DNA from: Takakia lepidozioides
Lineage: Eukaryota; Plantae; Bryophyta
Direction: 5' to 3'
Length of the DNA stretch: 64,000 nt
Assembly (NCBI GenBank): GCA_030704615.1
Contig: CM060733.1
Span: forward strand, 20,150,001 to 20,214,000
Shown: in pieces, positions 6,094-48,478 of the stretch
Position numbering within the stretch: position 1 is the stretch's first letter
Layout of the letters: each line of letters opens with the position of its first letter
The notes under the pieces: generated by a model
Seen by the model: only the letters and a program-made list of their open reading frames with translations
Told to the model about the DNA's origin: nothing
The model's database searches: none
Position numbers and translations under genes: made by a program

Positions 6094-7229
6094 CACTACA
6101 ACAGATCCCGACTTTTACCTCTGCTATTTTCCAGTCGTATCAACCTTAAATTATGACTGCATGATTGCGCAGTTAGATAAACCCAGTCAGTTGTGACAAA
6201 TGAGTCGTAAGCGCCATAGAGTCGTATATGCCAATCGTGGAGCTCACTGTTGATGTGGCAACGGGGACACCTAATCATAGTCATTGATAGGACCATAGTA
6301 AATGACTGCGAATCCTGTCAGATTCACGTGGAACGGAAGGGATATGCCACGTGTCACATCAAAGAGAAGGCGACAGGGTCTTCACGACTGGCATATACGA
6401 CTTCCATGGATTAACCCCAGGACAGCACGTGGAGAATACCAGGAACGACACGTGGTATAACAGGGTGACTTCCGCAGATTAACCCCAGGACAACACGTGG
6501 ATTAGACTGGACATGACACGTAGCATGACAATATGGAGCGGGAAGGTCTTTCGTGACTGGCATATATTACTTCGGACGTTTAATCCCAGGTCCACATGTG
6601 GAGTCAAATTATGCAGGATGGGGGTGGGGTGGTCGTTATGACTGGAACATATGACTTCCATGGCGCACTCTGGATACAGCACGTGGCACGAGTATAGGTG
6701 AACAGAAGGGGGTGAAAGTGGCACGTGGCGGAGGCTCTGTGGATGGGAGGTAGTCGTGTACATGACCGTAGCATTGAAACACGAAAGCACATTGAAAGCA
6801 TACGAAAACACCATTGAAACATAAAAACACATTTGAAATTGGAACATCGATTCAAATACAACGTGACTTAATGTTCAGAGATCCGTTCCATAATCTAATC
6901 CTCTGCTACAAAAATGCACAAAACTGCAAAGTCTTAATAGACTTCCAAATGCCTGCGCAGAAGATGTATACACTGGCTTGGCCGGACTTGGTCACCCACC
7001 TTCAACTGCCATCCAGCCCGAAAACAGCAGAAGATACATGAGCAAGCTTTCAGGCAATATAGCAACAACAACATTGACATATGTGAAACAAACTAACATC
7101 GCTAAGAATGTCTAAGCACCATTACACAAACTTGATGTGTGCAAAATGGAAAATTACAGGTAGGGAACCCTTACCCCATTCTGGTAGTCAAGGACTGGAG
7201 GTTTGGGAGTTGTCTTGTGACAGGTAGCG

Positions 7230-11900: not shown

Positions 11901-12278
11901 GCTTAATTCATATACTGATTATCTCATCTCGATTAGCCTCGGAGCCAAGTATATCAGTCCCATATCAGTCGTGCTGAAATATTCCCGGTACCTACACCGT
12001 GGAAGTTCGCAATCTTGGTTTTCGAGTCCTACGATCGGGCTACTCCCCTCACACCGCGGCACGCCCTCTAGAGAGTCGAGGTGCTTCGCATCTGAGAAAT
12101 TTTCGTGTACACGTTGCTCGAATGGCGGGGTCTGCGTATAAATGTGAGGAGGCAGAAGGATATTGAGGTCGGAGTGGAAGGTAGCTAAGCCCCCGGGAAG
12201 GGTGTTCTCACTTTCTGGATCGGCATAACGCAGTTCAAGGGCATAGAGCCAGCATCTGCAAGCAAACTTGGATCTCCG

Positions 12279-21211: not shown

Positions 21212-26976
<5,765 letters not shown>

Positions 26977-28814
26977 TTTGTACTTCCTGATGGCACGTGT
27001 CAATCCAACATTTGAGATAAATAAACTGTAATAACGTGGCAAGGCAGATGGTCTCTCCCATTTGGGATACACATTTTCTCAGTAAAATTTCAACACCTAT
27101 ATCCTACCCTGAATCTCAAAACTCGGTAAGTTTGGGATGAATAGAAAATACAATTATGAAAAATGCCTAAAAAGGCAAGAGATGGAATGTCCGAGTTACT
27201 CACTGTGGGGAGGGAAGAGGGAACGACGCAGACACAAAGACAGCTCATGCTACAAAATTCATTGAATTGTAAGCATAGGCCCTGTCGATCCCACTTGGTT
27301 GGGTGTTTGACATAGAAGGACAGACACCCCACCAAGAATGGCGCAATGGACCACATCATGGATCGAACAATGCCCTACTGATTAACGACGATCTGCTTGC
27401 ACACGTTTCATTGCCACTGACAGTGTGGTGAACCGGACATAACAGGGATAGATTGATCGGATACAAAGATCCTGCCTCACTGACGTCATACTCCCACATG
27501 CATTCCTTTTTGCTAACAGCACACCAGATGTCAAGGGACACAGGCAATTTTCTGCTCACCAGTCAGTTCAGAGGCAAAGGGAACTTCTCGGATTCAATTC
27601 CAAACACTCGAAACACAGTGTCTAAAATATCCAAGGATCAATACATCCATGGGAAGATAAAATGCAAACATAAGACTGACAGGGACAGAGCTATTGAACG
27701 GGGAACCCGCTACATCTCGCCACAAATCCTAAATTGAGGAGCATGCAGGGATTAGATAGCAGGTCCCAATAGATGCGTATGAGAAGCTTACCAAGGATGC
27801 AATCACAGAGCGATGGCAGAGAGGCGCTGCGGAGCTCACGAACTAGGCAGCGCGATCGCACCACTGTTGTTTCTCTTCTCGTGCGTCCTCTTCCACACTA
27901 GACTACTGCCATCTGCCGGTCGAGAGGGATAAACAACTGGCATCTACCGGTGGTCGAAGCAAGGAATCGATACTATGCGATAAAAGAATATTCGATACGG
28001 GGCCATATACTCCCCACAAAATATAAAGTGCTAAAGTTACTCACCCTTGCCCCATCAGTGTCCAGGCTTCCCAATATAACCTAACCCACATTTTTATCCT
28101 TTTGTTTCATTTGTTGGCTCCTCTTTATTGGCTCTGTCCCTTCAGGGCAGAGACTTTGCATCATGTTGAAGTCATTGGAGAAAATGTGGTCAACGGCCTT
28201 ACACCTTGTCAAGAGTATGATTGGTCTAAAAAAGCTTTTAAGTATAAACCCACTGGTAGCTTGTCAAAATTTTGCTTCAATGGACAGAGCCTCTTACGGT
28301 TTGCGGCTTGTTCTAATTCTAAAGAGGAGACTTACGCAGTGTCAAAACTCACTAAGCCCGTAACTTATTGTGCTTTCTCAGACGTTCTCCTCTCCATGGC
28401 TGAAAACTACTTCCAGATATTCTTTTAAAGGCAGTGTTACCTCCCTCAGATAACATCTTCTTATTGAACAATTTATGAAAAATAAATGGATGAATTTTCA
28501 GGTTTATTATGGATGAAAGTAGATTTCACTATTCGCAAAAATATGCCATACCCGTCTTGTTTTCATTTGTGTTCATTTTTAAACCACATTTTACCAGAGG
28601 GGAGAAAATATTTTTGATGATAAAGAAAACAAGCGACTCCGCCACAAGAGGCTATGTCCTTTGGTGATTTTGGGGTTGTTGTTTTATACTTTTTTTCCCA
28701 GGGCTTCATGAATCATGCCCATCAACCCCGTTCTCCCCCAAGGCAACATGTCTCCACCATGCCTCTATCCTTTGCGGATCCCATCAACCCTCCATAGACT
28801 AGGCTTAATGGTGG

Positions 28815-29595
28815 CGTGCGCATACACAACTACATCGTTGTCCAAAACCACACAACACATGTGCACACCAAACACTAGTCTATCACTAGTCTACCACTAG
28901 TGCACCATTAGGCTGCCATTAGACAACCACTAGTCACCACTAGTGCAGCCACTAGTCCACCACTAGGTTGCCACTAGCCACCACTAGTGCAACCACTAGT
29001 CCAACCACTAGGCTGCCACTAGCCATTACTAGTGCAGCCACTAGTCCATCACAATAGATAAAGAAATGAAGATACAAGCACACAAGCTCTCTCAAACTCA
29101 CATACTTGCACATGAAAACATCACTCATATATTAAGTCAAGCCAAGTGCACCCTACGTCATGGGGAATCCACACTACGGCGCCAAAGCTCAACTCGAGAA
29201 ATGTGAGCCCACCGCGATCTGCCGTGAAAATAACAACGTCAGGTGACTAAACATATTTTGGTCCCTGGATTGACACTTGGGTCAATCTCAAATATCAATA
29301 TATAAAAGCTAACTATTTTCTAGTTAACTTCACACTAGTGGTAAAATAACTTGACAGTTGTCGTGCGCATACATATCGCTACACAACTACATCGCTGTCC
29401 AAAACCACACAACACATGTGCAGACCAAACACCCTATAGGGTAACATGTTTATCGTGTATAGGTGTTACTTGTTTCTTAAGTGCTGCTGCGAGGGCCTAG
29501 CCACTAGTCCACCACTAGGCTGCCACTAGCCACCACTAGTGCAGCCACTAGTGCAGCCACTAGTCCAACCATTAAGCTACCACTAGCCACCACTC
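28815..29595. repeat. CCACTAG-based minisatellite and a duplicated block on both sides of the left LTR
   Basis: CCACTAG(TGCAG/GCTG/TCCA) arrays at about 28870-29050 and 29497-29595. CGTGCGCATACA...CCAAAACCACACAACACATGTGCA occurs at about 28816 and 29363. Confidence 0.75.
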
Positions 29596-29597
29596 AA

Positions 29598-29934
29598 TAC
29601 GACCTTGGATGTCACAACAAGACATGCGATTATAAGGGTCAGGGAGGTGTTGCCTTCAGGAGTGTTGATTCTGGAGGGTCGAGATAGCATGGTATGGAAG
29701 GACCATGTACGCAATTGTGCGCCATGTCACCTTCCACATGTGGATGGGAGGATAGAGCCCAACCTTACACTGGTACCTGCAGGGTTGCATTGCATGCTAT
29801 GTGGGCATGTTCGTGGTGCCGCCACTATGCTAGTGTGTAATCGATGCTCAAGAGGTTGGCACATGGGATGATTGACACCATCTCTTGAGAGGGTTCCTGA
29901 TGGAGATTGGTTATGTCCACACTGCTTGGGATAG
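29598..29934 (+). pseudogene. Integrase C-terminal extension with a PHD finger (inverted segment of the DNMT retrotransposon)
   Basis: TTLDVT...LRVREVLPSG-like sequence, then CMLC...MLVCNRCSRGWHMG*LTPSLERVPDGDWLCPHC, a C4HC3 PHD finger with one Cys changed to TGA (29869-29871). Confidence 0.9.
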
Positions 29935-30183
29935 TGGCAGTGGATATGACTAGTGGCAGCTAACAAGACATGGGAGGCCAAGCTCATAGGAGTCAATACC
30001 TGAGATCTCAGGCTCAAGTTCACAGGTTGCAAGATGGCGACTAACGATGGGGCAACTTTTGTACCCAGCCTCTTGATCTATCGAGTTTGAGTGTAGTAGG
30101 GACAGTGGTGGAAGACTCAGTGAGGCTATGGCCACTATCACATCTTGTGGATACCTGGACTTAGAGGGACCTAAGCGCCAGCT

Positions 30184-32431
30184 AAGGGGGCGTTGTCTGC
30201 TGCAGATACACATAGTCCCCAGGGTGGAAACGCCGAACACTTGGCCGATATCCCCCTCCACGTATAGTGACATACCTCAATGTGTCTCGGTGTTGGGCAA
30301 TAGCAAGATTCTCAAAAGCCATAGGCATGACTCTCTTGAACAACTCTACCCGCTGGGCACATGCTTGTGTCCACACATCCGGATCATCAAGGTTGAGGAC
30401 TACCGCAGCCTCCCTGCGAATAGATGTAGGCAAATCCGGCTCTCGGCCAAAGAGAATAAATATGGTGAGAAAGAGGCAAGTGATGTTTGCTTGCTAAACC
30501 TATAGCCCATGACTAACCAAGGTACCTGAAGATCCCAATCTCCTATGTGTCCATTTTGCAAACCATACTTACACAAACCCCTCTTCACTGTCTAAACCAC
30601 TTTCTCTGTCAAGCCATCGGCCTCAGGATGGTCCCGAGAAGTGGTATGGTGGTCTATCAAGGCTTTATCACACAAAGCCTGAAACTCGTGTGCATACCAC
30701 GCCACCAATACTGCCCCTGCAGTAAACTATGAGTGCGTCGCACTCCGAAATGCCCCAACTCCTCATGGGCATGCCGCACTAACCGTGCACGTTGTGTTGG
30801 GTGAGGCACGATCCTCACCCGACCATCCTCCCACGCTCGAAGCAGGTGTATCCCCTCCCACTTGAATCTCTTGGCTCGTTGCAGGATCCGATCCATCTCC
30901 TTGGCAGTCACACTAGCTGTCGTGTCTCCAGTGCAGAGGTAGTCCAACACAACCCAATCCTCATGTATATCTCTGGTACCACCTGACTCATCACTAGCCT
31001 CAGGGTCCTCAGACACTCCGTGTCGCGGCCCTTTGCCTTGAGGGCGGGGAGGGGTCGGGACACATGAGGGGTTGCCCCTGTGGTGGGGGCAGCGGCAGCG
31101 GCAGCAATAGGTATGGGGGGCTGAAGCACCCTTGAGTGCCCAAGGCACCCAAGGAGGCGGAGGCGCTCACTAGGTGGAGCCCCGCACACCGGGTTGCGGT
31201 GGGGGTGGCTCCACAAGGGGTGGTGGTAGCTTAGCGGGACTTAGTGGGGGTGGCTTAGGACTCACCATGGGGGCGGAGACCTCGTGGTGGGAGTCGTGGG
31301 AAGTCTTGGGACTCATCACGGTCCATAGGGGCCGTGGTGAGTGGGCCAAGACTCACCGCGACTCATCACCGGGAGTCGAGGGTTTTCGTGGTGGTTCGCC
31401 ATAAAATGGCATGGCTGGTTGTGAAACCCCCGCAGACTGCTACAGAAGTATATATAGGGAGTAGTAACCCCGAGAACGGTGCAAGCCCGTTAGTGACCAA
31501 AAACTAGTGAGTAAGCGAGCGAGCCGGAAAGCGACCAAAGAGTGGGGAGCTGTTCCGGACTGCCAACTACCAAAGGGAATTCCCGCTGGTTCCAAATCGG
31601 TGGAGGGTTCTTTGGGAGAACAAAGGGGGACCGTTATGCCCCGGTGAGCAGCCGAAGCTCCAAGTTGGCCCAGCAGCCAGATTGGGAGTCAGGCGCGCGC
31701 ATCAAAGCGAGTAACTATGACTTGAGGGGGAGCTTACCGAAGTGAGGTGCGCGACACTCCGTCTACAGTCATCCTTGTTGTAGGTCCAACCTGACCTCCC
31801 GATGCCAAGATATACAAAAAGGCAGATGCATGTCATCCCGACACCATCTCCTCGTCCGTCTCACCATGCCACCGAGCTCCAGTGTCATCATGATGGCTCG
31901 TGCATGGATTGCGACTCAATCCATCCGCATCCCTATTGACCAATCCGGTCAATGCACAACCTGAAAGTCATACTCTTGGAGTATAAGTGCCCACCTTGAA
32001 AGCTTCCCCGTAAGCTTGTCTGATTCCATCAACTACTTGAACCCCATGAAAGCTCAAACTCGGCTCACATCTGTGGGGCATGGAATCTATGCGAATACGT
32101 CTCTCTATCCAATTGCCATAGACATCCTTCTTGGCTGGCATCACCGTGGCTGAAGCATATTCTCCACCAGAGAGCTCAACTAAACCAGCCTCCCAGAGAT
32201 CTTGAGTCCTCATCTGAATCAAAGACCTCTCCATGTCACTATATCTATACGGTCTCCAAAAGATTGGCGTGTCCGTGGCCAACTCAATACGAATCTCCTG
32301 ACCCTTCAGTGCTCCCAAAATCCTTCAAACTGAAGGCAAAACAATTCCTGTAAGCCCTCAAGAACCGCCATATACGTCATCTCTCTCCTCCAGCGACAAT
32401 GGGTCCAATGTCAGGCTCCCAATTGTCCTCC
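30184..32431 (-). pseudogene. RT N-terminus, RNase H end and integrase of the DNMT retrotransposon, with deletions
   Basis: PIFWRPYRYS...YASATVMPAKKD (RT start; the YxDD region is deleted), LSRWALILQEYDF...DADGLSR, HEELGHFGVRRTHSLLQGQYWW (integrase Zn domain), HPEADGL and RFHPGDYVYL. Confidence 0.88.
31021..31756 (+). mobile_element. Solo LTR of the chromovirus family at 36621-43204
   Basis: TGTCGCG...CGCGACA termini, 5-bp TSD CTCCG (31016-31020 and 31757-31761), and near-identity to the reverse complement of 42478-43204. Confidence 0.96.
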
Positions 32432-33199
32432 CACTAGAAGCATTCGTGTCATTTACCACTGGGGTAACCACTCATTTTGAGTCATAAAAGTCAAAAAACC
32501 GGGATTGACTGGAAGTTACAAACGACTAGTTACAACAGATGTGGAAGTTGGGTCGGACATCCAATGATTGGAGTGGTGAAGGACGCAGACGCGTGAACAA
32601 TTATTGCGATTAATGCTAAAGAACCACGTGGCGTAACCAGGCGGGCTGCCTGTGTCTGACCTTTTGGGTTGACTTTGACTTTTCCCTCCGGATGAGTGGA
32701 CTGACTCACTAGAGCACGGTGACACATGGACGCGGATGTGGACGTCGATGTGGCGGCGCCGCGACGACCACCACTGCTGCCACGTAGCCACAGGCCCGGG
32801 CGCCACGTGGTAGTCGACCACATAACTTGTAGTGCTACATGCCCAGTGGCAACTGCGACTACGGAAGTCGACGCAACCACTGCTTTACTACTTTAAATGA
32901 AGTGCTCGAAATTACTTGAACAATCACTCATAGTGGTTCATGCTTTGAAGTTTTGGTGTTTGTAGTGAGCACGCATGTAATGCCATACAAGAGAATTAAT
33001 CATGTCATTAGATTCGCGAAAATAATGAAAGACATGTCATGAAACAAAATGAAATGAAAAAGAAATGAAATGAAACAAAATGGTACTTTATTACATCTGC
33101 AGAAAGCTCAAAGAGCTTATGGTACAAAATGAAAAACCAAAGTAAAAAAGCAGCCCAAAGCTACTACTGCTCTGGGGATTGCCTAAGGGTCAAGGCCTC

Positions 33200-34245
33200 G
33201 TGCAGGTAAGCTGCCAAGCAATTGTGATCCTCATAATGCAAGACTCAGTGACAGATTGAGTCCCACGGAATAGACCTGCCCATGCAGGTTTCTTGTAGCT
33301 ATTGATCCACAGGGAATCATAGGTAATCTTGTGCTTGAGATCTGGCCCTCTTGGATGAATATGGACCCACACTCTCTTTGCTCCTTTAGCTACCCATGCC
33401 TCTGCACAAATTATGCATTCATCCTTGCCTTGTTGCTAGTAGCTGACAATGATAGCCTATATTTATTCTAGGAAACACCCAACTTAACTTCTCACACTAG
33501 TTCCTATGCTGAATGTGTCTGCTACTCTATGGAATGTAACAGACATTCACCTTTTTGCCTCGGTTGTCCCATCATTGACTGGGCCAGAAAAGTATTCATT
33601 CCACAGCTTCTCCTCATCTCTGTTACTTGTTTTTTGATACTTTCATGTTGTCACATTGGCAGTATCATGTCAAAGTCACTCCAAACTAGATTCACTCAAC
33701 CAGCTAACTTGCAGAATTCAACATGGAAATTGAGGGCCGATTCTGATAAGAAGGAAATACAAGGTGAAATGTGTTGAAGAATTAGCAATGTCTGATTTTA
33801 TAAATTGTGCCGCTGCTGCCAGTTGACCATCTACCCATGCAGGTTTCTTGTAGCTACAGAGTCAATCTGGAGCTTGAAGCCCGGCCCTCTTGGGTGAATT
33901 TGCACCCACACTCTATCCCTGCTCCTTCAACTATCCATGCCTCCTATGCTGAATTGCGTCTACTACTCTCTGTCATCTAATAGGCATTCAACTTTTTGCC
34001 TCGGTTGTCCCACCATTCACTGGGGTCAACAAAGTATTCATTCCACACCTTCTCCTCATCTCTGTTATCTGTTTTGGATACTTTCCTGCTGCCACATCGG
34101 TAGTTACTTGTCATAGTCATTCCAAACCACCACAGATCCACCCAACAAGCTAACTTACAGAATTCAATATGCATCTCAGGGCCGAGTCTGATGAGAGGGC
34201 AAAACAGGCTGAAATAGGTCGAAGAAGAAGGTGCCCTCACCACAT
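33200..34245 (-). pseudogene. Two tandem degenerate copies of a two-exon PDF (OSB-type) motif
   Basis: EEKVWNEYFVDPSEWWDNRGKK (about 33990-34070) and HPRGPDLKHKITYDSLWINSYKKPAW (about 33280-33360). Further partial copies at about 33550-33620 and 33820-33900. Confidence 0.8.
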
Positions 34246-35351
34246 TGTCCTTGACAATTCAATATGCATCTCAGGGCCGAGTCTGATGAGAGGGAAAAAC
34301 AGGCTGAAATAGGTCAAAGAAGAAGGTACCCTCACCATATTCTCCAAGGCCTCTATACCATGCCCCTGCTGTGCACACCCTACAAGCATCATGTTCCACG
34401 TGATGAAAGATCGTTTTGGGGTTTAGAGCAACATAGTATCTTCTTACCATTATATCAATACCGTGGTTGGTAGAAACTAGAAACCCACCAAATGGCTCAT
34501 GGATTGTCATGAAGTACCTCACACCCAAAACACAACGTTTGGACAAGAGTACAGCTCTCTCTGCCCTTATGATCCCCTCAGTGTGGCTGGCAATTATTGC
34601 TCTTCACTCTTCCAGACGGGACCGCGTGCTTGATAAGCACCCTTCCACATTGAGGAGTATATTCTAAATGTTTGCACATGCAAGATCTCTGTTAAAACGT
34701 CACTCAGACAGCGCAATAAACTGAAAGAAAATAGACACACCAGGTATGTCAGAAACTTAAGCAGACAAGCAAGCTAATGGAAGGAGGAGAAGGGTGTCGA
34801 TTAAAATTTTGCATGAACATACATAGAACTTCTTGGACCACGATTTTCTGCTGGGATGGGTCAAGGACAATCTCAAGCCTGAAATGCTCCAATTCAAACA
34901 ACCCGGAAGAGCACAAATAGAGATGGACATTACCTTGCTTCGGTATCCCTTGAGGCCACCATCATAGCCATCAGTCAGAATGATTTGGGGCCCCGCATGG
35001 CCAAGCCGGGTACCCATTTCAGCTCCACAGACAAGCGCGTTAATCTGCTGAAGGATGTGAAGCTTCCCGCCCCCTCCCTGCAGGAAGAAGACATGGCATA
35101 GTCTTTCCGGCGAGCTCAGAGAACAGCACAGCTCGCTCCCATCCCCGGGACAGAGGGACCCTCCATCTAAAACCTCACGTGATGTGTTTCAAAGAAGAAG
35201 ACAATTGCCCTAGGCATTCAAAAACACCAAAAGTTTCTGCCAGAAGAGGCATTGTGGACTCCCTCTCTTGATCCTCTTCCAGAAGCTGCGGTCATGGTTG
35301 AGGTGCCTGATTTTATCAACTGTGCCACTGCAACTGCTGCCTTTGGCAATG

Positions 35352-35865
35352 CAACCATGCACCTCTTTGCATCTGGTAATCTGACAGGCATTCACCTTGG
35401 TACAATTCCAGCTCTAAAGATGTCGCCATGGACCTCTTTCCCATTTTCTAGAGCTGCCAGGGTAGTGTTCATAATAATATTTGGTACAACTCCAGCTTTG
35501 ATGATACCCCATGCACCTCTTTGCCCTTGTCCAGGGCTTGATGCACCCACATTTTGCATACATGTCCACCAGGGTATGGTTTAAATGACATTTGGTACAA
35601 TTCCAGCTCAACCATGCACCTCTTTGCATCTGGTAATCTGACAGGCATTCACCTTGGTACAATTCCAGCTCTGAAAATGTCGCCATGGACCTCTTTCCCA
35701 TTTTCCAGAGCTGCCAGGGCAGTGTTCATAATAACATTTGGTACAACTCCAGCTTTGATGATACCCCATGCACCTCTTTGCCCTTGTCCAGGGCTTGATG
35801 CACCCACATTTTGCATACATGTCCACCAGGGTATGGTTCAGATGACATTTGGTACAATTCCAGCT
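35352..35865. repeat. Near-perfect 257-bp tandem duplication in PPR coding sequence
   Basis: CAACCATGCACCTCTTTGCATCTGG starts at both 35352 and 35609. Confidence 0.9.
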
Positions 35866-37841
35866 CTGAAGATGTCGCCATGGACCTCTTTCCCCTTTTC
35901 CAGAGCTGCCAGGGCAGTGTTCAAAATGACAAATTTTGGTACAATTCCAGCTTTGATGACATGCACCTCTTTGCCTTTGTCCAGGGCTGCCAGGCTTGCA
36001 CAAGCATTGCAAATGCACACAAACTTGATGTGGCCGGGCTTCACCCCTTCCCCCATCATTTGATCATAGGTCTCCAAAGCATCAGTCCCACGTCCCTGTT
36101 GTGCATACCCTGCAAGCATCGCACTCCACGACACCACATCTCGTTTAGCCATAGTGTCGAAAACTCCCTATGCATCCTCAATGCATCCCCATTTGGCATA
36201 CATGTCCAGGTTAGGATAGTGTATCTGGTGCAATTCCAGCTTTGACCGATGTCACCATGGACCTCTTAATTCCCCTTTTCTAAGCTTGCACACGCATTGC
36301 AAACACATACAAACGTGAAATCATCCATGATGCTCCCCTTACCATACATGTTGACAAGGTTGTTGAGTAGAAAAACGTTCGGCGTGAATCCACTTTGGAC
36401 AATGTGAGTGTGCATCTGCTTTCCAACTTCCAGGCCTTTCATCTTGATGCACTTATGCAAGAGACATACATACGTATCTACATCTGCTAGTATGCCTCCT
36501 TGGTTTAAAGTCTGTAGAGCCTCTTTCAGTCTGCCTGCCTCATAAAGCATCTTCACATGCCCATAAGTGCCAGAAGAGGCATTGTGGACTCCCTCTCTTG
36601 ATCCTCTTCCAGAAGCTGTGTGTCGCGCACCTCACTTCGGTAAGCTCCCCCCCTCAAGTCATAGTTACTCGCTTTGATGCGCGCGCCTGACTCCCAACCT
36701 GACCGCCGGGCCAACTTGGAGCTTCGGCTGCTCACCGGGGCATAACGGTCCCCCTTTGTTCTCCCAAAGAACCCTCCACCTATTTGGAACCAGCGGGAAT
36801 TCCCTTTGGTAGTTGGCAGTCCGGAACAGCTCCCCACCGGGCTCCACCTAGTGAGCGCCTCCGCCTCCTTGAGTGCCTTGGGCACTCAAGGGTGCTTCAG
36901 CCCCCCATACCTATCGCTGCCGCTGCCCCCACCACAGGGGCAGCCCCTCATGTGTCCCGACCCCCTGCCCTCAAGGCAAAGGGCCGCGACACACACACCT
37001 AAACACAGGGAGTCGATGTCCTCATCGACTTGTCCATTTTGTAGAAACGAACATCCAAGTTGTGGCGTCCCACATCAAGGAGTTTGTTTCCGTACCATGG
37101 CGTCCCATGGCAAAGAACCAAACCCCACACTTGACTCTACTCTCCACTAGCTAGTTCGGCCGACTTCCTCCAAGTCCCGGCCAAGGGTGGAGCCTCTCCA
37201 GCTCCTCCCAGTGCACTCTTCTTGGCCTACTTCAAGGCCAAGGAACGATCCTCCCCAAGGATCGAATCGCCTTACTGCAACAACATTGCTTGCGATCGCT
37301 CATGATGCCGCTTTTGGCATCACCTTGAGCAAGGGTTCACCTGGAACCCTCTTTGACTAGGACGATAACCTTGAACCAACCGTGCGCCCCAATCACTGCA
37401 ATTGGGTCCGCCTTGGAATGCTGGCCTAAGGTACGGGAACACGCCGAAGCCGCACTACGACTTCGTCCCGAGGCTACACGATTATAGTACGTGAACGGAA
37501 GCACGTAGCTTCCGCGTTAGCCCGCACTACAAGGCAACCCCCTCGGTAGCGCAGTTATAGTACGCGCACGCGCCAGGTGCGCACTAGCACGTGAACTCCC
37601 AAAGAAGGCGCAAGTTTCCTTGCCCCTTGGATGGGGGTCACCCGATTTTGGCACTACGCAAACACACGATTAACCCAATCTACCTCTCCCACTTTTATAA
37701 GCTAGCATGCATTCTACACACTAGCCAACCATACCATGCATCAACATTCCAAACAAAATAGGATGTACAACATTTGGAAGCCATTTCATTTATAGCACGT
37801 TTTGTACAATACAAGTTTTTGCAATCGGATTACTAAGCTAG

Positions 37842-40800
37842 CTAAGCCGGGCTAAGCATGCATTTCCTCCCCCACGCTCCAAGGTTGATGTCCCCATCAA
37901 CGCTTCTTCCGCTTTTGAGGTCGCCCTTTGAAAACTGCAACCACCTCGGATGCGTTTCCCATTTCTGAGGCACGCACCCAAGATGCCTCCACATGACGAG
38001 ATACTCCGTTTCTCGGTTCTTGAACCTCCTCGACTTAAGTACTGCCTCCACCTCGTACTCAGGTTCATTTTCATGATCCAACAGCACAGGTGGCGGACGC
38101 AACACTTGATGCCGATTCGGGCGCGCTTCATCTTTGATGTAAGGCTTCAAAAGGGAGACATGGAATACTGGGTGCACTTTGCTGTTTGCCGGCAGCTCCA
38201 ATTCATACATATCCTCATTCATAACCTTCCGAATGCGAAAGGGTCCCGCATACGGAGGCACGAACTTCGGGCTCACTTCCGGAGGTAGTCAAAAATTCTT
38301 GATGTTCAACCAGACCTCCGTGCCTGCCTCAAACTTCACTTCCCTCCGCTTCCGATTTGCCTGCCTTTCATACCGTTTCCTAGCTTTGGCAATGTTGTAC
38401 TTTGCGAGCTTCAACAAACGCTCGCGTTCTTCCAGTACCGCCACTACTGCCGGTTCCTCAACATCCTGGGCGACCCAACTTGGCACCAGAGGTGCTTTTC
38501 CATAGACCAATACGAAAGGGGAAACTCCTGTTGCGGAGTGTTCTGTGTTATTATAACAGAACTCTGCCGCGTCTAAGTGTTCCACCCAGTCTGTTTGGTC
38601 TGCCGACACGTAATTCCGCAAGATCTGCTTCACTACGGAATTCACTCTTTCTGTTTGGCCGTCGGTCGTAGGTCGGAAGGCGGTGCTCATCTTTAGCCTC
38701 GTCCCCATCTTCTTCCAAAGTGCCCTCCAAAATTTACTCGTAAACTTTGGATCGCGATCCGAGACAATATCCTTCGGGACTCCATGATGCTTTAAGACGT
38801 GGGCAAAATAAAGTCATCCTGTCTCCTGCGCTATTGCCGTCTCCTTGGTGGGGATGAAATGGCCCATTTTACTAAACCTATCCACCACCACCATGATTGC
38901 ATCGAATCCTTTTGACAGCGGCATAACAGTCATGAAATCCATCGAGACGTTTCCCAAGTCCCCTCCGGAATCGGCAAAGGTTGTAACAGCCCTGCTTGCT
39001 TTCTGTACTCGCTCCGGTTTTGTTGGCATGTGGTGCATGTCTTGACATACTCCTCTGCCTCCTCCCTCAGTTTGGGCCAGAAATACTCTTTCTTCAAGAG
39101 TGCCGCAGTGCGCTTGGCTCCGCCGTGGCCCGCAAGCGGGCTATCATGGCATTCTCTCAAGAGGCTATCTCTGATCCCTCCCTTCGGTACGTAGAGACGC
39201 TTTTGCTTATACCGGAGCAGTCCATTTTGCAAGTGGAACTGCGATTTAACCCCCATCCTCAAGTCCTGCATCACGGACTTCGCCAGCTCATCCTTCCGGC
39301 AAGCCTTCCGGATCTTCCTTTGGAGCGCCGTCTCGCCTTTGTACACCAACAAGAGCTGCTGCTTTCTACTTAAAGCATCGGCCACCACGTTGTCTCGCCC
39401 CGGTTTGTACTGGATATCCACGTCGAACACCGCCAAAGTATCTTGCCACCTAAGTTGTTTTGGGGACAACTTGGGCTGCGTGGCAAAATACTTCACCGTG
39501 ACATTGTCCATGAACACCTTCACTGGGTTGGAACCAACATAGTGGCGCCAAAGCTCAAGGCAATACACCACCGCCTTCATCTCTTTTTCATGCGTCGGCC
39601 ACCGTTGCTCCACTTCATTCAGTTTCTTACTTTCGTAAGTCACTGGACGTCCATCTTGCATAAGTACACCCCCAACCGCGAAGTCCGACGCATCTGTATG
39701 AATCTCAAATGGACGATCGAACTCCGGGATTTTCAAGACTGTAGCTTCCGCCATCCGCTGCTTCAATTCAGCAAAAGCTTGGGCACAAAATGTGTTCCAT
39801 ACCCAGACTTTGGATTTACACAGAAGGTCCGACAACGGCCCCGCGATCTTGGCGAAATTTCTCACATACTTCCGGTAATAGGAGGCGAGTCCTAGGAAGG
39901 AACGCACTCCCAGGACCGAAGTTGGAGGCTCCCAGTCCAAGATCGCCCTCACATTTCTGTCATCCATTTTGATCCCATCCTGTGTAATCACATGCCCCAA
40001 GAACTCCACTTTCGTGACCCCGAATTCGCACTTTGAAGCTTTGGCATACAGCTTTCCTTCTTGCAATTTTTGGAACACCCTTTTGAGGTGCTCCAGGTGC
40101 TCTTCCTTTGTTTTCGAGTACACCAAGATGTCGTCGATGTACACGATCACAAAGTCATCCAACCACTCCTGAAAAAGGCTGTTCATCAGCGTGCTAAATG
40201 TCGCTGGTGCATTGGTGAGCCCAAAAGGCATCACCAAGAACTTATATGAACCATACCTTGTCCTGCACGTGGTCTTCTCCTCATCTCCTTCCGCCACCCG
40301 AATTTGATGATAGCCGGAGCGCAAGTCGATCCGGCTGAAATACTTCGCTCCTGCCAACCGATCAAAGAGGTCGTCGATCCTTGGCAAATGGTATCGGATA
40401 GTCACCTTATTCAGAGCCCTGTAATCGACACACATCCGCAGCGTCCCATCCTTCTTGTCTGCGAATAGCACCGGGGCTCCGTAAGGTGACTTACTCGGCC
40501 GGATGTACCCCTTTGACATTAGATCCTTGAGCTGAGTCTTCAGCTCGACCAACTCCCTGTGGCTCAACCGGTAGGGTGCCTTGGCAGGCGGTTCCGTTCC
40601 CGGTATCACCTCAATCTTGTGGTCAACTCCTCTTCGTGGTGGCAAGCCGCTTGGTAAATCCTCCGGCATCACATCCTGGTATTTCTCCAAAATCCCCTTG
40701 ATCCAATCTGGGCTCGACTCCCCATCGCCTTCTCCCTTCACTTCTCTAATGTAAAGCAAAAACTGGGGTTCGTGTGTCTCCTCCACGGCCCACTCCCTTG

Positions 40801-42422
40801 CTGACAGAAGGTTTATTCGCCCTCCCACGGATTTGGGCGTTTCCGACACTCGTAAGACCTCGCCACCATGGCAGCGTGACTACTCTCTTGCGGCCATCTA
40901 TGACCGCTCCGGATTTGCTCAAAAAGGTCATCCCCAAAATGAGATCTACTCCATCGATCTCGCAGATGGTGAAGTTCTCACGTCCCTCCCAACTCCCCAG
41001 TTGAAGAGGAACATCAAACGCCAACCTTGTCGCCAACTGTGGTTCTCCTTTGGCAGAACGCACCTCAATAGAGGCCCCCACGTCACTTGTCGGGAGTCCC
41101 AGCTTTTGTGCCGTTGCCGGTGTCATGAAGGAGTGCGACGCTCCTGTGTCCACCAACAACGACACATTAGTTCCGGATATTATCCCATCCACGAACAATA
41201 ACTGACTCCCTTTTCGTAAGGCGCCAGTTTCCTGATACAACTCACAAGAAAATTTGCCTACCTTGCAAGTCCTGGCGACCACCGCTTCCACCAAGCAACT
41301 GATGGTATCTTCCGATAGCTCCGTGGTCGCCCGAGTCATGTTCAATTGCCGGGGCTTCGTGCACTTCTTGGCCATGTGCCCGGGCTCCCCGCAATTGAAA
41401 CACACTCCATCAAAGGTCGCCTTTTGTCCGCCATAAGCCGCTCCACCCGCTTTTCCTTTCGAAGCACCGGGTGCCGCCTTGACGTGTGAAGGCCCTCCCT
41501 TCGATTTCCATGTGCCATTGTCGCCACGTGGCCTATCCCACTTCTTTTCCGGTCGGAAGGAGTCACCTTCCCGCCGGGTCTTCTTGTGGTTCAGCTCCGT
41601 ACGGCCTTGTCTCTCACCCCTAGGGACATCCGAGAAACATTCAGCCCTCTCAATTGCCTCGTTCAAAGTCTTGGGTGGCTTCTCCTCCAACTTCCGCCTG
41701 GCCCATGGGGCCAGTCCCGCCACAAAGTTGAAGACCATTTCTGGTTCTGCCATGTCCGCGACTTCGAGCAACAGCACATTGAAAGCCTGGACATACCCTC
41801 GAATGTCATCTGTTTGCTTCAAATTCCTCATCTTGTCCCGTGCAAGCCAGGACGCGTTGAGGGGCACAAACTGTCTCTTCATCAATTCCTTGAACCCACT
41901 CCAATTCAAGGTTTCCGGGCTTGGACCTCGGTCGTGAAGGCGTTTCTGCCACCATTGTTGAGCATAGCCCCTCAAATAGGTGGGAGCCACTTCCACCCGA
42001 TCCTCGTCACTCAACTTGGCCGCCCGGAAGTACTGCTCTAGCTCCAGGAGCCAGGTGTTGAATGCCTTCCGATTTCGGACGCCCTCGAAGGTGCCGGGTT
42101 CCTTAGGCTTCACCTTAAACTTTGCCTTAATGGAAGTGGCATTAGCCGCCTTCAACACGTCTTTCAACGTCCCGCCAAACTGCACCAACAACCCTTCCCA
42201 AAAGGCTGCCGGCATGGGAGGCATCTCTTGGTTTGTCGGAGCTCTCAAGGATTCCTCGGGCTCCGACTCCTCGGATTCCTCCCGCTCTTGAGCGGCCTCG
42301 TTTTCGGAAACATTCATCGCTTCCTCAAACGGCCGCCTCGGTGACACGTCGCCCCCATCGGGCTCACCGGGATCATCATCTTTTGGGCCGTTCCGCTTTC
42401 GCTTCGGCTTGCCCGACCCCAT
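37842..42422 (-). pseudogene. Chromovirus gag-pol (Gag, Zn knuckle, protease, RT, RNase H, integrase, partial chromodomain)
   Basis: [47 protein letters not shown]...CTTC, TDGQTERVN, GPFRI and YEVEAVLKSR...EYLVMWR. Several frameshifts. Confidence 0.95.
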
Positions 42423-42463
42423 GATGAGGCCAATCCCAAGGACGATCGCGTACTGAACTCTAA

Positions 42464-42475
42464 GCTCTGATACCA
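42464..42475 (-). promoter_or_regulatory. Primer binding site for tRNA-iMet
   Basis: TGGTATCAGAGC two bases inside the 5' LTR. Confidence 0.95.
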
Positions 42476-44479
42476 AGTGTCGCGCACCTCACTTCGGTAA
42501 GCTCCCCCCTCAAGTCATAGTTACTCGCTTTGATGCGCGCGCCTGACTCCCAACCTGACCGCCGGGCCAACTTGGAGCTTCGGCTGCTCACCGGGGCATA
42601 ACGGTCCCCCTTTGTTCTCCCAAAGAACCCTCCACCTATTTGGAACCAGCGGGAATTCCCTTTGGTAGTTGGCAGTCCGGAACAGCTCCCCACTCTTTGG
42701 TCGCTTTCCGGCTCGCTCGCTTACTCACTAGTTTTTGGTCACCAACGGGCTTGCACCGTTCTCGGGGTTACTACTCCCTATATATACTTCTGTAGCTGTC
42801 CACGGGGGTTTCATAACCAGCCATGCCATTTTATGGCGAACCACCACGAAAACCCTCGACTCCCGGTGATGAGTCGCGGTGAGTCTTGGCCCGCTCACCA
42901 CGGCCCCTAAGGACCGTGATGAGTCCCAAGACTCCCCACGACTCCCACCACGAGGTCTCCGCCCCCATGGTGAGTCCTATGCCACCCCCACTAAGTCCCG
43001 CTAAGCTACCACCACCCCTTGTGGAGCCACCCCCACTGCAACCCGGTGTGCGGGGCTCCACCTAGTGAGCGCCTCCGCCTCCTTGAGTGCCTTGGGCACT
43101 CAAGGGTGCTTCAGCCCCCCTACCTATCGCTACCGCTGCCCCCACCACAGGGGCAGCCCCTCATGTGTCCCGACCCCCTGCCCTCAAGGCAAAGGGCCGC
43201 GACACTGTGGTCATGGTTGAGGTGCCTGATTTTATCAACTGTGCCGCTACAACTGCCGCTTCCAGCTGACCATCTACCCATGGAGGTTTCTTGTAGCTAT
43301 CCTTCACAAGGAACCATAGGTAATCTGGAGCTTGAAATCTGACCCTCTTGGATGAATATGGACCCAAACTCTATCCTGCTCCTTCAGCTATCATTGCCTC
43401 TGCACGCATCATGCCCCCGTGTTGCCCCCTTTTACCAGGCAACAGGTTCCCAACCAGGGCCTCATGAGAAACGCAATATTTCTGTTTTATGTTTATGGTG
43501 GTAATGACAACCATCCTTGCCTTGATGCCAATGCGATCATCACACTCCACCACTCCACATCTCGCCACAGTCGAACACTACCTTTGCATCTTCAATGCTC
43601 CCGCATTCGGCATACATGTCCACCAGGGCGGTGTTCAGAATGGCAAACCCTACAATTCCAGCTTTCACGATGTCACCATGGACCTTCCATGTCACTTCCA
43701 GGTGGAGGCAGTACATATTAAAATATCTATTCCCCCAAGGCCTGTTCTTGTGAAACACACGTCAGTAAATGTGCCCCCGAATCACGGGTGCAATCAATGC
43801 GCAGTGGTTCATGGAGTCGTTGAGTCGACTACATATTCAATTTAATGAATAAAATATCTTTATTCCATTAATCGAATTAAGAATGAATATTTCTAGTCGC
43901 ATGTGCAGTAATTAGAACCACTTGTAGTTTTCGTTTTTTCAAATTTATGTATTTACGCAATTAATTAAATAGTCTGGATTTTTGCTACGACTCCGGAGTC
44001 GTTGACCGCACTTCTGTCCGCCGTCTGAAATGCCCCTATGGGCCCACATTGTCCGTTTCGACTTTCCAGTAGTCCCACTTACTGCCAAGTGGTTCCCGGA
44101 GTGGTTGGCGGACACCCAGTCGATTCGGAAAAGACACGAATGCTTCTAGTGTCCGTAACTGCAACCTTAAGTCCAGCAAACTTAGAGGTATGAGATGCGT
44201 CTCGTGGTTGCTATGCCGCAACCTCATGAGCAATACTCCCTGCCTGCTCAGTCAATGACAAGGCCTCATCCTGCCCCATCATCTCATCCTTGAGGACCTC
44301 CTCAACCCGAGAAGAATCCCCAACCTCCTCCATCACAGCCGCCTTGGCTGCCAACTCCCTCTGAACCTTGAGCACCTCCTACGTGTGCCATGGATGTCTA
44401 CACCCCGTGGTCCTCACCGGCTCGCCCCCACTCAATGCATGTACCGTCTCGGTAGGCAGAGAGACCGTCGAGGGAAGTG

Positions 44480-45470
44480 TACTCCGCACTCTACGTTGCT
44501 CAGCCATAGCCAAGCTGATAATCCAGGTCAAGCAATTGAGATCCATCGCTTGCCCCAACACCTGACGGCGTGATGCGTCAGAAAGAAAAGGCACCGCCAT
44601 GGTCCCAGTGGAAAGACCCATAGCCCGCTCTCGCTCGTCGGCATTAGGCTCCACTAACTGCTGCAGCTGAGCATCCCACAGGAGGCCAGGTCCACTATCC
44701 CGGAAAGCATGCGATCCTGGGAAGCTGAGCAGTGTAGGTAGTGTTGCTCGTGGTTGACCCACCTTGTTGACAACTGCCAAAGGCGGACGGTCATCGTGTC
44801 TCACACCCTGAGACTGTCTCCTCGTGTCCAAGATGCTATCCACTATGAGATATGCTAGCCACTGCACCCCATCAAATGCACGCTTGAGCAGTGCGGGTGG
44901 CATCAAGTTAGTCCACCATAGCCGTGAACGATGAGCCCGTGACCCCACTGCAGCTGCATCCAGCAACACTACTGACCCAAGCCACGACCGGACTTGATGC
45001 ACACTGGCCATCACCTTGGCCCGAGAATCGCCCATCAGTGGCACATTCTCCAAGATGTATGCTGGAGATACAACTTGATGAAGCTGTAAGAGGCGCAAAA
45101 CCCGCACCATCTCCCAAACAGACCCGACTTCGAGTCTCGCAATCCATTGTCATGCCCGGCTGATGAATGTCCTTGGCAGGGCCAACCTGCCACTACCAGA
45201 TTAATGGAGCCAACCCGCTCCAAATCTTGCGCCCCCAACAACGGAATGTCTGCTGGCAAGGCCTGCTGATATCCACGAATTGCAGACACCGACAACAACT
45301 CAGGGTACTGCTGCACCAACTGAGCAACATGATGGAGTGAGATGTGTCGTGTAGTCTCATCCCTCTCCATATACAAGTAATGCCGTACCCATACATCTGC
45401 CTGTAGCATAGCAGCCAATCCGGTGCTGATCCCACCAAACAAGTCCAGAAGGCAAATGCCTTCATCCGGA
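44480..45470 (-). pseudogene. C5-cytosine DNA methyltransferase domain (DNMT3-like, non-permuted) within the retrotransposon pol; one frameshift at about 45118
   Basis: Motif I LLDLFGGISTG, II YMERDE, IV LVVAGWPCQG, V GLRDSKSGLF, VI ILENV, VIII RAHRSRLWWTN, IX ERERAMG and X RRQVLGQAMD. Confidence 0.93.
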
Positions 45471-45879
45471 CACTGCCACACGATCGGTGTGGTGTCCAAT
45501 GGTGACAACTGAGGTGGTCCTGGTGCAATCCCCGCACTGTCCTCCTCTCCTGATGGTACAAAAGCCTCTACCCAGGTTTGTTGCACACGATAATCAGCAA
45601 CTCACTGCAAATCCTTGCTCGAGCCCCAGAATGGAGTGTGAGCAACCATGGTAGGCAACTCCGCCATACCATACATGTCATCCTGCTCTCCCGGAGATGA
45701 CACATCCTCTGAATGAGCATTGCCCTCCAGCAAACTCTCCAGACCAACTCACTGCAGCTGTGAATGCTGCCAGTGTCGGCATCTTGCCTCGCTGGGCAAC
45801 TGCAACTCCTCCGATGAACGTCACAGGGAGCTGCACACGCCGGCCCTCCCCTGACTGCCATCCAATGCCTATAGGAAGC

Positions 45880-48478
45880 TGACTCCTCCCAAAAATCCAG
45901 GGTGAAGCCCATGGGGTACAACACTGCCCCACCAACAAGGACATCGTACGAGACCGCGTCTGTCACAATGGCCTTGGCTCTCATCATTGAGCCATCTATA
46001 GGATGATCCGGCTGTAGTCTGATCGCCAACTCACGTCGTGTCATGCCCCGAGCCTGCTCTGATCCTCCCTGAGATGTCTGCATCTAGAATGGACAAGGCT
46101 CCATATCCGCCTCCGTAAGGCCCAAACCTGCAATAGCACCTCTGCCCAACATCAGTGGCTGAGCTCCCGAGTCCAACAAGACCCGCAGTGGCCGGTACCT
46201 CTTGCCTGCCGGTCCACTCAAATAAAAAATATTATCCTGATTGTCTAACATGACAACTCCAGGTGTCACCATGGCGCGCTCAATGGCTGGCCTAGCTGGC
46301 AGCTCCGCCAACCTGGCAACTACAGCTTGTCATGGCGCCGCCGTGGCAGTATTGACCCTCAAATCCGAGGATCCCTCCGGCACTACACCTCCCACTATCT
46401 CCGTAGAAGATGAAGTAACCTCCCCACTCTCACAGAGTGTAGCTGCCAGCCTGAACACCTCAGCTGGTCTTACCCCCAGCGTTGCAATCATGGTAGCCGA
46501 GAACAATGAAGCCTGACACATAGATGCGGCCGCCCCCAGCAGCATACTAGCTGCCGTAGCCTTGGCAACACTAGGTAGTGGTGCTGCCCGTATAGCTCTC
46601 CCAATGACATAGTAACCTCCACCTCGGTAACAGTCGGGCGAGAACTAGGTGCCATGGATGGCGGCGACACTGTCTCCGCCAATGTAAATGACTGAGGAAG
46701 CCTGGCCTGACTGCTTGCCTCCCTACACTGTGGATCCAACTCCACCTCTGCACCTCGTGGCTCAGGAACTAGTGGTGCTCCTTGAGTCACTACCGCAGCC
46801 GACTCCACTTGCACTAGTGGTAGACTTGCACTAGTGGTAGTGCTGCCCCGCACATAGTGGTAGTGGTAGTGGTGGTCCGCACATAGTGGTAGTGGCAATG
46901 GCACCCCTCACTAGTGGTAGTGCTGCCCCGCATATGAATCCCATGCCTCCCATGTCTCCTCCCTCAGGAGCAGGAGGTGGACCATCCGGCCTTTGAGCCA
47001 GTACCACCTTAGCTGTGGCCATGGCAGCGAGCCTCTACTCTAGCTGTTGAAGCCGGTTGGCCATGCTTTGGTCAACACCCTGACCTCCGCGTCCTTGGCC
47101 ATGTTGAGCTTGCCCTTGGCCTACACCTCGTGCTTAGCCACCTCGTCCTCTCTGGGCTGCTCCACCTTGCCCCCGCCCACCATTGTTCCCTTGGAACTGG
47201 CCTGGGCGCAACTCAGGATGCAAACCATAGCACTGGGCCTCTCCACGCCCGTACTTGCCACAATGCCCACACTGCAACTGTGCAGGATGTGTCGGTGCCA
47301 AACCATTGCCTCCCTCTGGGCAATCCTTCTTGACATGGGGTCCTCCACATGTCCAACACACCACATCTGCCCGTTGTTGGCTTGCAAATGAAGGGAGAGA
47401 CCCCTGCATCTGAGGTCCTCTCTGCCCTTCCAAGGGCTTCACCTGAGCCCTCTTTGTTGCCTTGAGCACGTTGAGGTAGTGGCTGGCTAGGAACACCACT
47501 ACCCCGTGGTGCCTCCTTAGCAAATCCCACCATGACCACTCATTCCTCCACCAATGTTGAGCTCTATCCGCTCTGCCAGCAAAAACACATTTGCTAAGGT
47601 GGGTTGGGCGGTTTGTAAGAAAGTTGCATCCCGCACCCTTATCCTCAGTTCCTTGTCCAATATCCCGTACCAGAATTGGACTGCCTGAGCTTCCGTAACC
47701 CCTTGGGTTACATTAATCAAGCGCCTTATGCGAGTGAAAGCCTCCCTCAAGCTCTTGATAGGCTTCCGTTGGAACTCTTACAAACTCATCAACTTCTCTG
47801 TCCTCACCCCTTGGTAGTTCCTTCTCAACTCTTCGAAGAACTCCACAATAGGGTTGAAGGTAGGCATGGCCGCTGGTGCTGGTGCTGCAGTAGCTTGGGT
47901 GGACGTCGTAGTTGCTGTACCACTAGTCCCACTACTGCTCGTGAAAGCTGCTGGTGCAGCTGCCGGTGTGGCTACTACCCTTGTACCTCTAGTGCCTCTA
48001 GCGCCTCTAGTGATTGAGACATAGTCGGGTGACCAGTATATCCTCCACTCCTCGATCTCAACATCATGCCCCCACCTAAACTCATGGTAATCATCCATGG
48101 GCGGCCCCTCAAGGTGCTGAAACAGCCTCTTTCATGCCATGAAATGTGTAAACAGTTGTGGATTACGCATTTGCTGCAAGTCACACCAACTATCAAACTC
48201 TTGGATAAAATCATCCAACTCAATGGTGCCCACCGCCCAGAGTACCTACGTGGCCCCTTGGTGGCTCCATACATCTCATCTATTGTGTCCCACAATAATG
48301 GCAAGGAAATAACTTGCACCACCGGTGTGAGTTCTCCTGATTCATAATCCGAATCAGAACCTTCCGTAGAAGACACAGGAGGTGAAGGTGGCCTAAACCG
48401 CACACCTCGTCTCGTGTACCCGCTAGTATCGTTAGTGCTCGTACCGACACTTTCCCCAACAACTAGTAGCACCTCCAT
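45880..48478 (-). pseudogene. Gag and aspartic protease of the DNMT retrotransposon, degenerate
   Basis: Capsid-like LREAFTRIRRL...QFWYGILDKELR, Zn knuckles CWTCGGPHVKKDC and CGHCGKYGRGEAQC, and protease VLLDSGAQ...YDVLVG. Confidence 0.85.

Follow-up and report, generated by a model that had tools for sequence, protein, structure and literature searches.

A short reading frame in this stretch of DNA from the moss Takakia lepidozioides encodes a PHD finger that lies beside the integrase of a decayed retrotransposon, and a DNMT3-like cytosine methyltransferase is found further along. The stretch analysed, 64,000 nucleotides in all and referred to here as the window, raises the question of whether the finger belongs to the integrase, and if so whether the element couples the reading of histone marks to de novo DNA methylation within one polyprotein, as an earlier note on the sequence had proposed. 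The positions of the features are collected in Table 1.

Identification of the finger relies on the curated profile PF00628, on which the domain scores 30.9 bits (E=2.8e-7, cut-off 24) when its single in-frame stop, which falls on a ligand position, is taken as X. The C4HC3 ligand pattern is present, the motif GDWLCPHC forms the end of the finger as the earlier note had stated, and the frame ends at 29934; in the intact relative L022 the same domain reaches 40.6 bits. The peptide upstream of the finger (TTLDVT.., from 29599) had been taken for the natural continuation of the integrase end ..GDYVYLQQTTP, and a tblastn search with the relative P0001 bears this out to the residue: residues 14-107 fall at 30472-30191 on the reverse strand and residues 108-219 at 29596-29931 on the forward strand. 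In this copy a block running from the tail of the integrase through the polypurine tract, at about 29599-30190, is inverted relative to the integrase. The INT-PHD fusion is the state of the family, being contiguous in both named and unnamed relatives, and does not hold for the window copy as it stands, where one half is read from each strand and no contiguous frame joins them.

Contigs from the host species bear on the inversion directly. A 113-base contig (X1 record 1; also X3 record 17) spans the left junction at 29545-29657 with zero differences, which argues against mis-assembly. In 14 further contigs over four runs, derived from other copies in the same sample, position 30189 is joined to 29598 on opposite strands, so those copies carry the un-inverted INT-PHD fusion. 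The four runs come from one host sample that is possibly the source of the assembly, and the support they lend is independent of the assembly only, not of the individual. Near the inversion ends, one of which coincides with the polypurine tract, inverted microhomology does not exceed 5 bases.

Table 1. Features of the retrotransposon and of the insertions nested within it, by position in the window
Feature	Position	Strand	Basis
Terminal repeat A1 (TG...CA), 5' end, preceded by target-site copy CTAT	50521..50835	-	match to A2
Predicted self-priming site, 12 bases directly after A1	50509..50520	-	complementary to 50673-50684 inside A1
Gag region, frameshifted	47011..48283	-	tblastn with Marchantia P0028 residues 1-415, 37-81% identity
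Aspartic protease region	45868..46569	-	tblastn with P0028 residues 508-740; protease Pfam matches in P0045, P0047, P0049
DNMT3-like cytosine methyltransferase domain	44500..45463	-	PF00145, E=6e-5; one frameshift near 45119
Conserved in-frame stop, TAG CAA CCA, readthrough-type context, end of ORF1	44205..44213	-	in phase with DNMT and RT start
Nested CACTA-type insertion with PPR-like gene fragments, splitting ORF1 from ORF2	32432..44151		19-base TIRs, 3-base TSD GGA
Unrelated chromovirus inside the CACTA insertion: Gag-PR, RT-RH-INT, SH3, chromodomain	36621..43204	-	TSD CACAG
Remnants of RT start and RNase H end	31782..32427	-	L022 ORF2 residues 138-455 without match
Chromovirus-family solo LTR, lying between RNase H and integrase	31021..31756	+	TSD CGGAG
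Integrase: H2C2 zinc finger, partial core, C-terminal part up to ..GDYVYLQQTTP	30188..31019	-	PF17921, tblastn
Polypurine tract (30180-30190) and the 3' untranslated stretch before it, right end of inverted block	29935..30190	+	L011 and L012: like position and sequence type after PHD
PHD finger (C4HC3)	29791..29925	+	PF00628, PDB matches; one in-frame stop at 29869-29871
Rest of integrase C-terminal region, TTLDVT...NCAPCHLP..., within inverted block	29599..29790	+	tblastn of relatives
Repeat B1, ending CACGACA, then 2 bases, then A2	29359..29596	-	repeat comparison
Repeat A2	29056..29356	-	repeat comparison
Repeat B2, element 3' end, then CCAT	28812..29053	-	repeat comparison

All of these pieces, apart from the nested insertions, form one element, as the target-site duplications and the host-species contigs establish, and the insertions extend it to ~22 kb. 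The order in the family is Gag-PR-DNMT3 in the first frame and RT-RH-INT-PHD in the second. In the window the DNMT3 domain lies 15 kb from the PHD, across the nested CACTA and chromovirus insertions; the CACTA-type insertion accounts for 11.7 kb, and the loose ends of host contigs at 44152-44154 skip it and lead from the linker directly to the RT side. Most of the RT-RH region is gone, together with the part of the integrase core that corresponds to residues 650-761 of the L022 ORF2. Inverted, partly deleted and interrupted by three nested insertions, the window copy is dead, and no function of its own is to be expected from it.

The insertions have histories of their own. The chromovirus at 36621-43204 is young: its frames are long and open, its primer site is of the tRNA-iMet type, and its 3' LTR has an internal deletion. 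The solo LTR at 31021-31756 belongs to the same family (19 substitutions in 726 bases). The CACTA insertion is a Pack-type element that captured nearby host sequence: it holds scrambled PPR and OSB-like fragments, 72-94% like a cluster at 56200-58300, these gene labels being given by the look of the translations. Elsewhere in the window, a decayed LINE-type endonuclease with weak Exo_endo_phos matches is found at 5125-6146 on the forward strand, and the intron-bearing host genes at 877-2771, 12189-14081, 22199-22441 and 61792-62955 look, from their translations, like ATP synthase beta, a cytochrome P450, phosphoglucomutase and pantothenate kinase.

The element has the Ty3/Gypsy order Gag-PR-RT-RH-INT with a DDE integrase (rve and H2C2 domains in the L022 ORF2), TG...CA termini, 4-base target-site duplications, a self-complementary primer site and a polypurine tract. 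Two identical terminal LTRs are not present; the ends differ, and the layout A...PPT-B-nn-A-nn-B is shared by the window copy and the two related loci L011 and L012. In the window, A1 and A2 match at 88% (22 substitutions in 299 aligned bases), and the 4-base duplication reads CTAT at one end and CCAT at the other, with one mismatch, while those of L011 (CATA) and L012 (AAGG) are perfect. No tRNA-type primer-binding site follows A1 of the window element; the self-priming arrangement recurs with 9 bases in L011 and with 16 in L012. The identity of a DIRS or Ngaro element, a type with a tyrosine recombinase and no protease, was considered and rejected: an rve integrase and an aspartic protease are present. 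The target site sits in the centre of a 10-base inverted repeat, and the flanks at 50840-50900 and 28728-28811 share a 47-base repeat of 87% identity.

The junction between B and A, CACGACA-nn-TGTCA (29357-29358 in the window), is conserved across subfamilies and is equal to the two ends of the element. Since the junction reproduces both termini, it suggests, as a point peripheral to the argument, that the integrase may open a circle inside the LTR. By eye, ~24 of the 80 metagenome loci pass from B to A and ~19 of the 80 end at B with unrelated DNA next to it, counts that fit either circles that were opened within the LTR and then integrated, or recombination between B1 and B2.

Relatives of the element occur in liverworts, Sphagnum, Klebsormidium, Closterium and chlorophytes. 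A query with the PHD region retrieved 26 proteins, several of which hold rve and PHD in one chain, including gene models of Marchantia and Calypogeia; the DNMT queries retrieved 32 and 73. Two layouts are distinguished. In the first, seen in 23 full and 15 partial rows, Gag-PR-DNMT ends shortly past the DNMT; in the second, RT-RH-DNMT-INT-PHD occupies one ORF (16 full and 4 partial rows), and the named members are chlorophytes. Of the proteins found by DNMT queries alone, 23 extend as far as the C-terminal region of the integrase, and the PHD is present in 20 of these; among the other three, two break off at that point and Closterium P0108 ends without one. The 80 metagenome loci follow the order Gag-PR-DNMT-RT-RH-INT-PHD. 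The PHD is on the integrase in all 73 of the loci with room for it (69 by tblastn, 4 by reading), a count biased by the choice of these loci with a PHD-containing query, and the DNMT lies between PR and RT in all 21 loci holding both, a set that includes the same insertion in different assemblies.

Within the 35 loci that have 4.5 kb of upstream sequence, 11 give no DNMT match; nine of these also lack Gag and protease, and two keep only Gag. A lineage devoid of DNMT was rejected as the explanation, and the 11 loci are read as truncated or deleted copies. The Klebsormidium gene model P0106 and the proteins P0100/P0094 join DNMT and RT in one ORF, and with the 16 chlorophyte-type proteins they indicate that the two-frame layout is not universal. 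P0026 carries INT-PHD without a cytosine DNMT. In three algal-type polyproteins (P0055, P0076 and P0026) the PHD is followed by an additional tail that resembles a DAM adenine methyltransferase, and P0055 runs RT-RH-DNMT3-INT-PHD-DAM-like in one ORF. Gene models that fall within the DNMT3-Gypsy clade are P0085 (Chromochloris), P0104 (Haematococcus) and P0108 (Closterium).

The two frames of the window's branch are separated by a stop codon. Rare readthrough of a stop is usual at gag-pol junctions, and the TAG of the window, the phase of which (44213) was counted with the RT start across the CACTA target-site duplication, lies in a region that is constant among the host-species contigs: positions 44203-44216 show zero variants at 5% or more, while 31 other places nearby vary. 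The intact locus L022 has an ORF1 of 1369 aa, TAG CAG TTA and an ORF2 of 1047 aa in one frame, and the junction of a second locus, L026, reads TAG CAA TCA. In all, 28 loci have an RT start and room upstream, and in 22 of them a stop followed by CARYY lies within 121 bases of the RT start, compared with 175 of 5000 random windows. The full CARYYA motif, described as important for readthrough (PMC3441728; here and below, citations refer to the accessible portion of each source), is found in seven of the 28 and in four subfamilies, that of the window included. The six loci without stop and CARYY comprise one with another RT, three that lack the motif and two with TAG TAA CCC. The linker varies in length and sequence between subfamilies; the stop motif stays, and at all intact junctions the stop and both frames are in phase.

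The idea of one polyprotein is therefore only partly upheld: a shared chain would exist only in the predicted minor readthrough product, which the protease would probably cleave, and the conserved TAG separates ORF1 (Gag-PR-DNMT3) from ORF2 (RT-RH-INT-PHD). In the window's branch this stop keeps the DNMT out of the ORF of RT and RNase H. Judged by the conserved stop, DNMT3 and INT-PHD are likely to be separate proteins in the land-plant branch. If readthrough is rare, DNMT3 would be made at the level of Gag and INT-PHD at a fraction of it, and Gag-like abundance favours a bulk job for the enzyme inside the particle, such as methylation of the cDNA.

The class of histone reader to which the PHD belongs can be approached through its nearest structures and its binding residues. 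The best PDB matches are CHD4, ATXR5, the first PHD of KDM5A/B, PHF21A, BAZ2A/B, DPF, AIRE and UHRF1. CHD4, ATXR5, KDM5A PHD1 and BAZ2 are readers of the unmodified H3 tail. Specificity for unmodified H3 is also described for KDM5B, BHC80, AIRE, UHRF1 and DPF3, and the H3-binding residues of KDM5B serve as the reference here (PMC4225485). Across the 37 PHDs of the family, the position of KDM5B L325 is always L or I, that of D328 is D in 33, a P is always found near P347, and G349 is kept in 33; at the R2-binding Asp position the copy in the window reads Asn. Two residues before the His ligand, at what we take to be the position of the aromatic-cage Trp, all 37 have G or A and never Trp. An A1 pocket, an R2-binding Asp and the lack of an aromatic cage, the features of readers of unmodified H3, are thus found across the family. 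The K4-binding position, D308 in KDM5B, is acidic in only 6 of the 37 and Ala in the window's branch, and with this residue mostly missing K4me0 selectivity is uncertain. With the A1/R2 pocket kept, the PHD is likely to grip the tip of H3; that it selects for K4me0 is less sure.

The parallel drawn in the earlier note with the ADD domain, which in animal DNMT3 reads the unmodified H3 state, does not carry over to the fold: the domain is a single canonical PHD, and neither the best 60 PDB matches nor the Pfam matches contain an ADD. The parallel with chromoviruses fares better, as the PHD follows the C-terminal part of the integrase at the place where the chromovirus in the window has its chromodomain. 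A profile comparison between the integrase tail and the SH3-chromo ORF of that chromovirus gave no similarity, and the fold model of the tail with the PHD is poor (pLDDT 53).

The methyltransferase domain is intronless, lies inside the element and retains in the window copy the motifs FGG, PCQ, ENV, HRxR and ERER. By sequence, the intact enzyme of L022 is closest to DNMT3A/B/C (E 6.5e-8); M.HaeIII follows at 4.7e-5 and a plant entry of the DRM type at 5e-3. Its predicted fold (pLDDT 86.7) returns only DNMT3 among the Foldseek rows listed, animal DNMT3 matching at E 1.7e-16 and a TM of ~0.65. Between L022 and L026 the dN/dS ratio is 0.055 for the PHD (49 codons), 0.051 for INT and 0.122 for DNMT, values that place PHD and DNMT under purifying selection at the level of sequence. 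Recent dead copies of one metagenome subfamily give a PHD ratio of ~1 or more on very few changes, which is expected after insertion, though it lends no support. Depletion of CpG and CHG is seen in intact and dead copies alike; for CpG the observed-to-expected ratio of 0.48-0.70, compared with 0.53 for the window overall, is no stronger, so methylation by the host and by the element are not separable on this basis.

In the DNMT tree, which is unrooted and leaves out host DNMT3 rows, the window groups with Marchantia, Calypogeia and Sphagnum-like rows (100/100), and Klebsormidium P0106 shares its side of the 99/98 split that sets off the chlorophyte-type rows. P0106 also shares the order PR-DNMT-RT-RH-INT with the window family. 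Gypsy-DNMT3 elements have been published for Klebsormidium nitens as KnitGypsy-Dnmt3 (PMC5890265), and the name Gypsy-DNMT3 is in use for streptophytes (bioRxiv 10.64898/2026.05.21.726589). KnitGypsy-Dnmt3 resembles the window family in its Gypsy domain set, its DNMT3-type enzyme, the purifying selection on that enzyme and its split repeats, called DIRS-like in the legend of Fig. 4c (PMC5890265) and laid out as A...B-A-B in the window family; it differs in lacking the stop that follows the DNMT in the land-plant branch. The same source places the DNMT inside the Pol ORF and its acquisition in the K. nitens lineage (PMC5890265); the clade described here is wider. From its chlorophyte and zygnematophyte members, capture of the DNMT looks older than the Klebsormidium lineage. 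The term PHD has no occurrence in the main text and accessible supplements of PMC5890265, figure images aside.

Chromoviruses as classified in REXdb (PMC6317226) likewise close the integrase with a chromatin-reader domain; in the window family this reader is a PHD, predicted for an unmodified tail, and not a chromodomain for methyl-lysine. The chromodomain profile PF00385 is absent from the integrase C-terminus of the L022 ORF2 and its relatives, which have the PHD there. The RT-RH region is at best 38% identical to that of the chromovirus in the window, and in a quick RT-RH tree built without REXdb references it forms a long branch separate from that chromovirus. The accessible REXdb text (PMC6317226) contains neither PHD nor methyltransferase as a term. 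A reader, the chromodomain, is combined with a methyltransferase in one LTR element in the EpiLTRs (bioRxiv 10.64898/2026.05.21.726589). These and DAM-chromovirus-like LTR elements resemble the window family in bringing a histone reader and a DNA methyltransferase together, and differ in using a chromodomain, DAM and a DNMT4-sister enzyme in place of a PHD and a DNMT3-type enzyme without DAM; chromodomain and DAM are both absent in the window's branch. P0055 is alike to an EpiLTR, with PHD for chromodomain and DNMT3 for the DNMT4-sister enzyme.

PHD fingers occur in other transposons as well, among them CR1, Rehavkus, Chlamys and Chlamydomonas retrotransposons (PMC8557442) and retrotransposons of cnidarians (bioRxiv 10.1101/2021.11.30.470311); in the accessible parts of both sources the PHD is an accessory domain, and none is placed on a Gypsy integrase together with DNMT3. 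Comparative genomics of Chlamydomonas makes no mention of a PHD. Animal DNMT3A/B with their ADD share with the window family the catalytic fold and a reader whose predicted preference is for unmodified H3. They differ from it in that the window reader is a single C-terminal PHD on another protein and in another frame, and no PWWP or ADD was found. The literature search covered accessible text, to which Repbase, most subscription papers, images of figures and supplementary files of the 2026 preprint do not belong, and returned no account of an INT-PHD or of a readthrough stop in Gypsy-DNMT3; those images and files may show the PHD. Given the conserved stop after the DNMT, the element is a variant of the published Gypsy-DNMT3 and not an ordinary member.

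The reading that we favour, with somewhat better than even confidence, is that the PHD tethers the integration complex to nucleosomes through the unmodified tip of H3, while DNMT3 methylates the cDNA in the particle independently of the PHD. Ribosomes would mostly stop at the TAG and release Gag-PR-DNMT3, with a minority reading through to RT-RH-INT-PHD; DNMT3 would then be packaged in Gag-like amounts, far above those of integrase. After cleavage by the protease, the PHD would stay on the integrase and not on the DNMT. By binding A1/R2 of H3, and probably by disfavouring K4-methylated tails, it would bias insertion away from active promoters, a job comparable to that of the chromodomain in chromoviruses and achieved via the opposite kind of mark. 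The DNMT3 would act on new cDNA within the particle, a role already proposed for the methyltransferases of retrotransposons (PMC5890265).

The foremost alternative, which we regard as unlikely, keeps the PHD for a role other than reading a mark, such as stability of the integrase C-terminus, binding of a host factor, or engagement of the internal B|A junction as an apparent attachment site. The loss of the K4-reading acidic residue from 31 of the 37 PHDs agrees with it, as do the unusual ends, whose internal junction matches the termini and would make unusual demands on the integrase; against it, the A1/R2 pocket is preserved in both land-plant and algal members, and the nearest solved structures are readers of histone tails.

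Doubtful as well is the coupling envisaged in the earlier note, by which the PHD would bring DNMT3 to H3K4-unmethylated chromatin as an ADD does, with the insertion and its flanks methylated on arrival. In the window's branch the stop and RT-RH stand between the two domains. Further, the DNMT is found at either of two positions across the clade, as would suit a free module; P0026 lacks a cytosine DNMT; and the 60 closest structures include no ADD. What keeps the coupling in play is that the PHD is of the class for unmodified H3, a state that ADD domains also read, that the two proteins could share one pre-integration complex even when cleaved, and that an uncut chain is possible in the 16 full and 4 partial chlorophyte-type proteins. 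It is for these relatives, in which the DNMT directly precedes INT-PHD, that their domain order makes a coupling of histone reading and methylation more plausible.

Production of ORF2 by re-initiation, splicing or a separate transcript in place of readthrough would leave the rest of the favoured reading standing, and is improbable. The commonest metagenome subfamily, with its CAACCC context and an in-frame ATG two codons past the stop, speaks for it; on the other side, the window, L022 and L026 have no ATG after the stop, the frames keep phase, and the full motif recurs in several subfamilies. That the PHD was captured from a host gene, or was placed beside an unrelated integrase by faulty assembly, as its opposite strand and the adjoining CACTA with host gene fragments might suggest, is scarcely credible and refuted by the residue-exact tblastn continuation across the inversion, the fusion in relatives, metagenome loci and other host copies, the absence of introns, the polypurine tract of the element that follows, and the contigs that bridge the junction. 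Neither of the two findings named in the earlier note as refuting its reading turned up.

Why retrotransposons carry an enzyme that silences them is described as an open question in the discussion of PMC5890265. Under the favoured reading, the layout predicts DNMT3 as a bulk protein of the particle, and the PHD replaces the chromodomain as the reader of the integrase. The branches offer a natural contrast, with the DNMT before a stop in one and adjoining the integrase in the other, and the Marchantia copies allow insertion sites, histone marks and methylation to be compared in one place. Many gene models labelled DNMT3 and PHD in bryophyte genomes, for example that of Marchantia, are pieces of transposons. 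A larger picture, speculative and held with little confidence, is that of an ancient Gypsy clade of green plants with an epigenetic programme of its own: readthrough would load many DNMT3 molecules, the cDNA circle would be opened at a palindrome midway along the LTR, and the PHD would deliver pre-methylated DNA with DNMT3 to H3K4-unmethylated chromatin. Such a programme may seed de novo methylation at insertions and shape how the genomes of liverworts, mosses and related plants are methylated.
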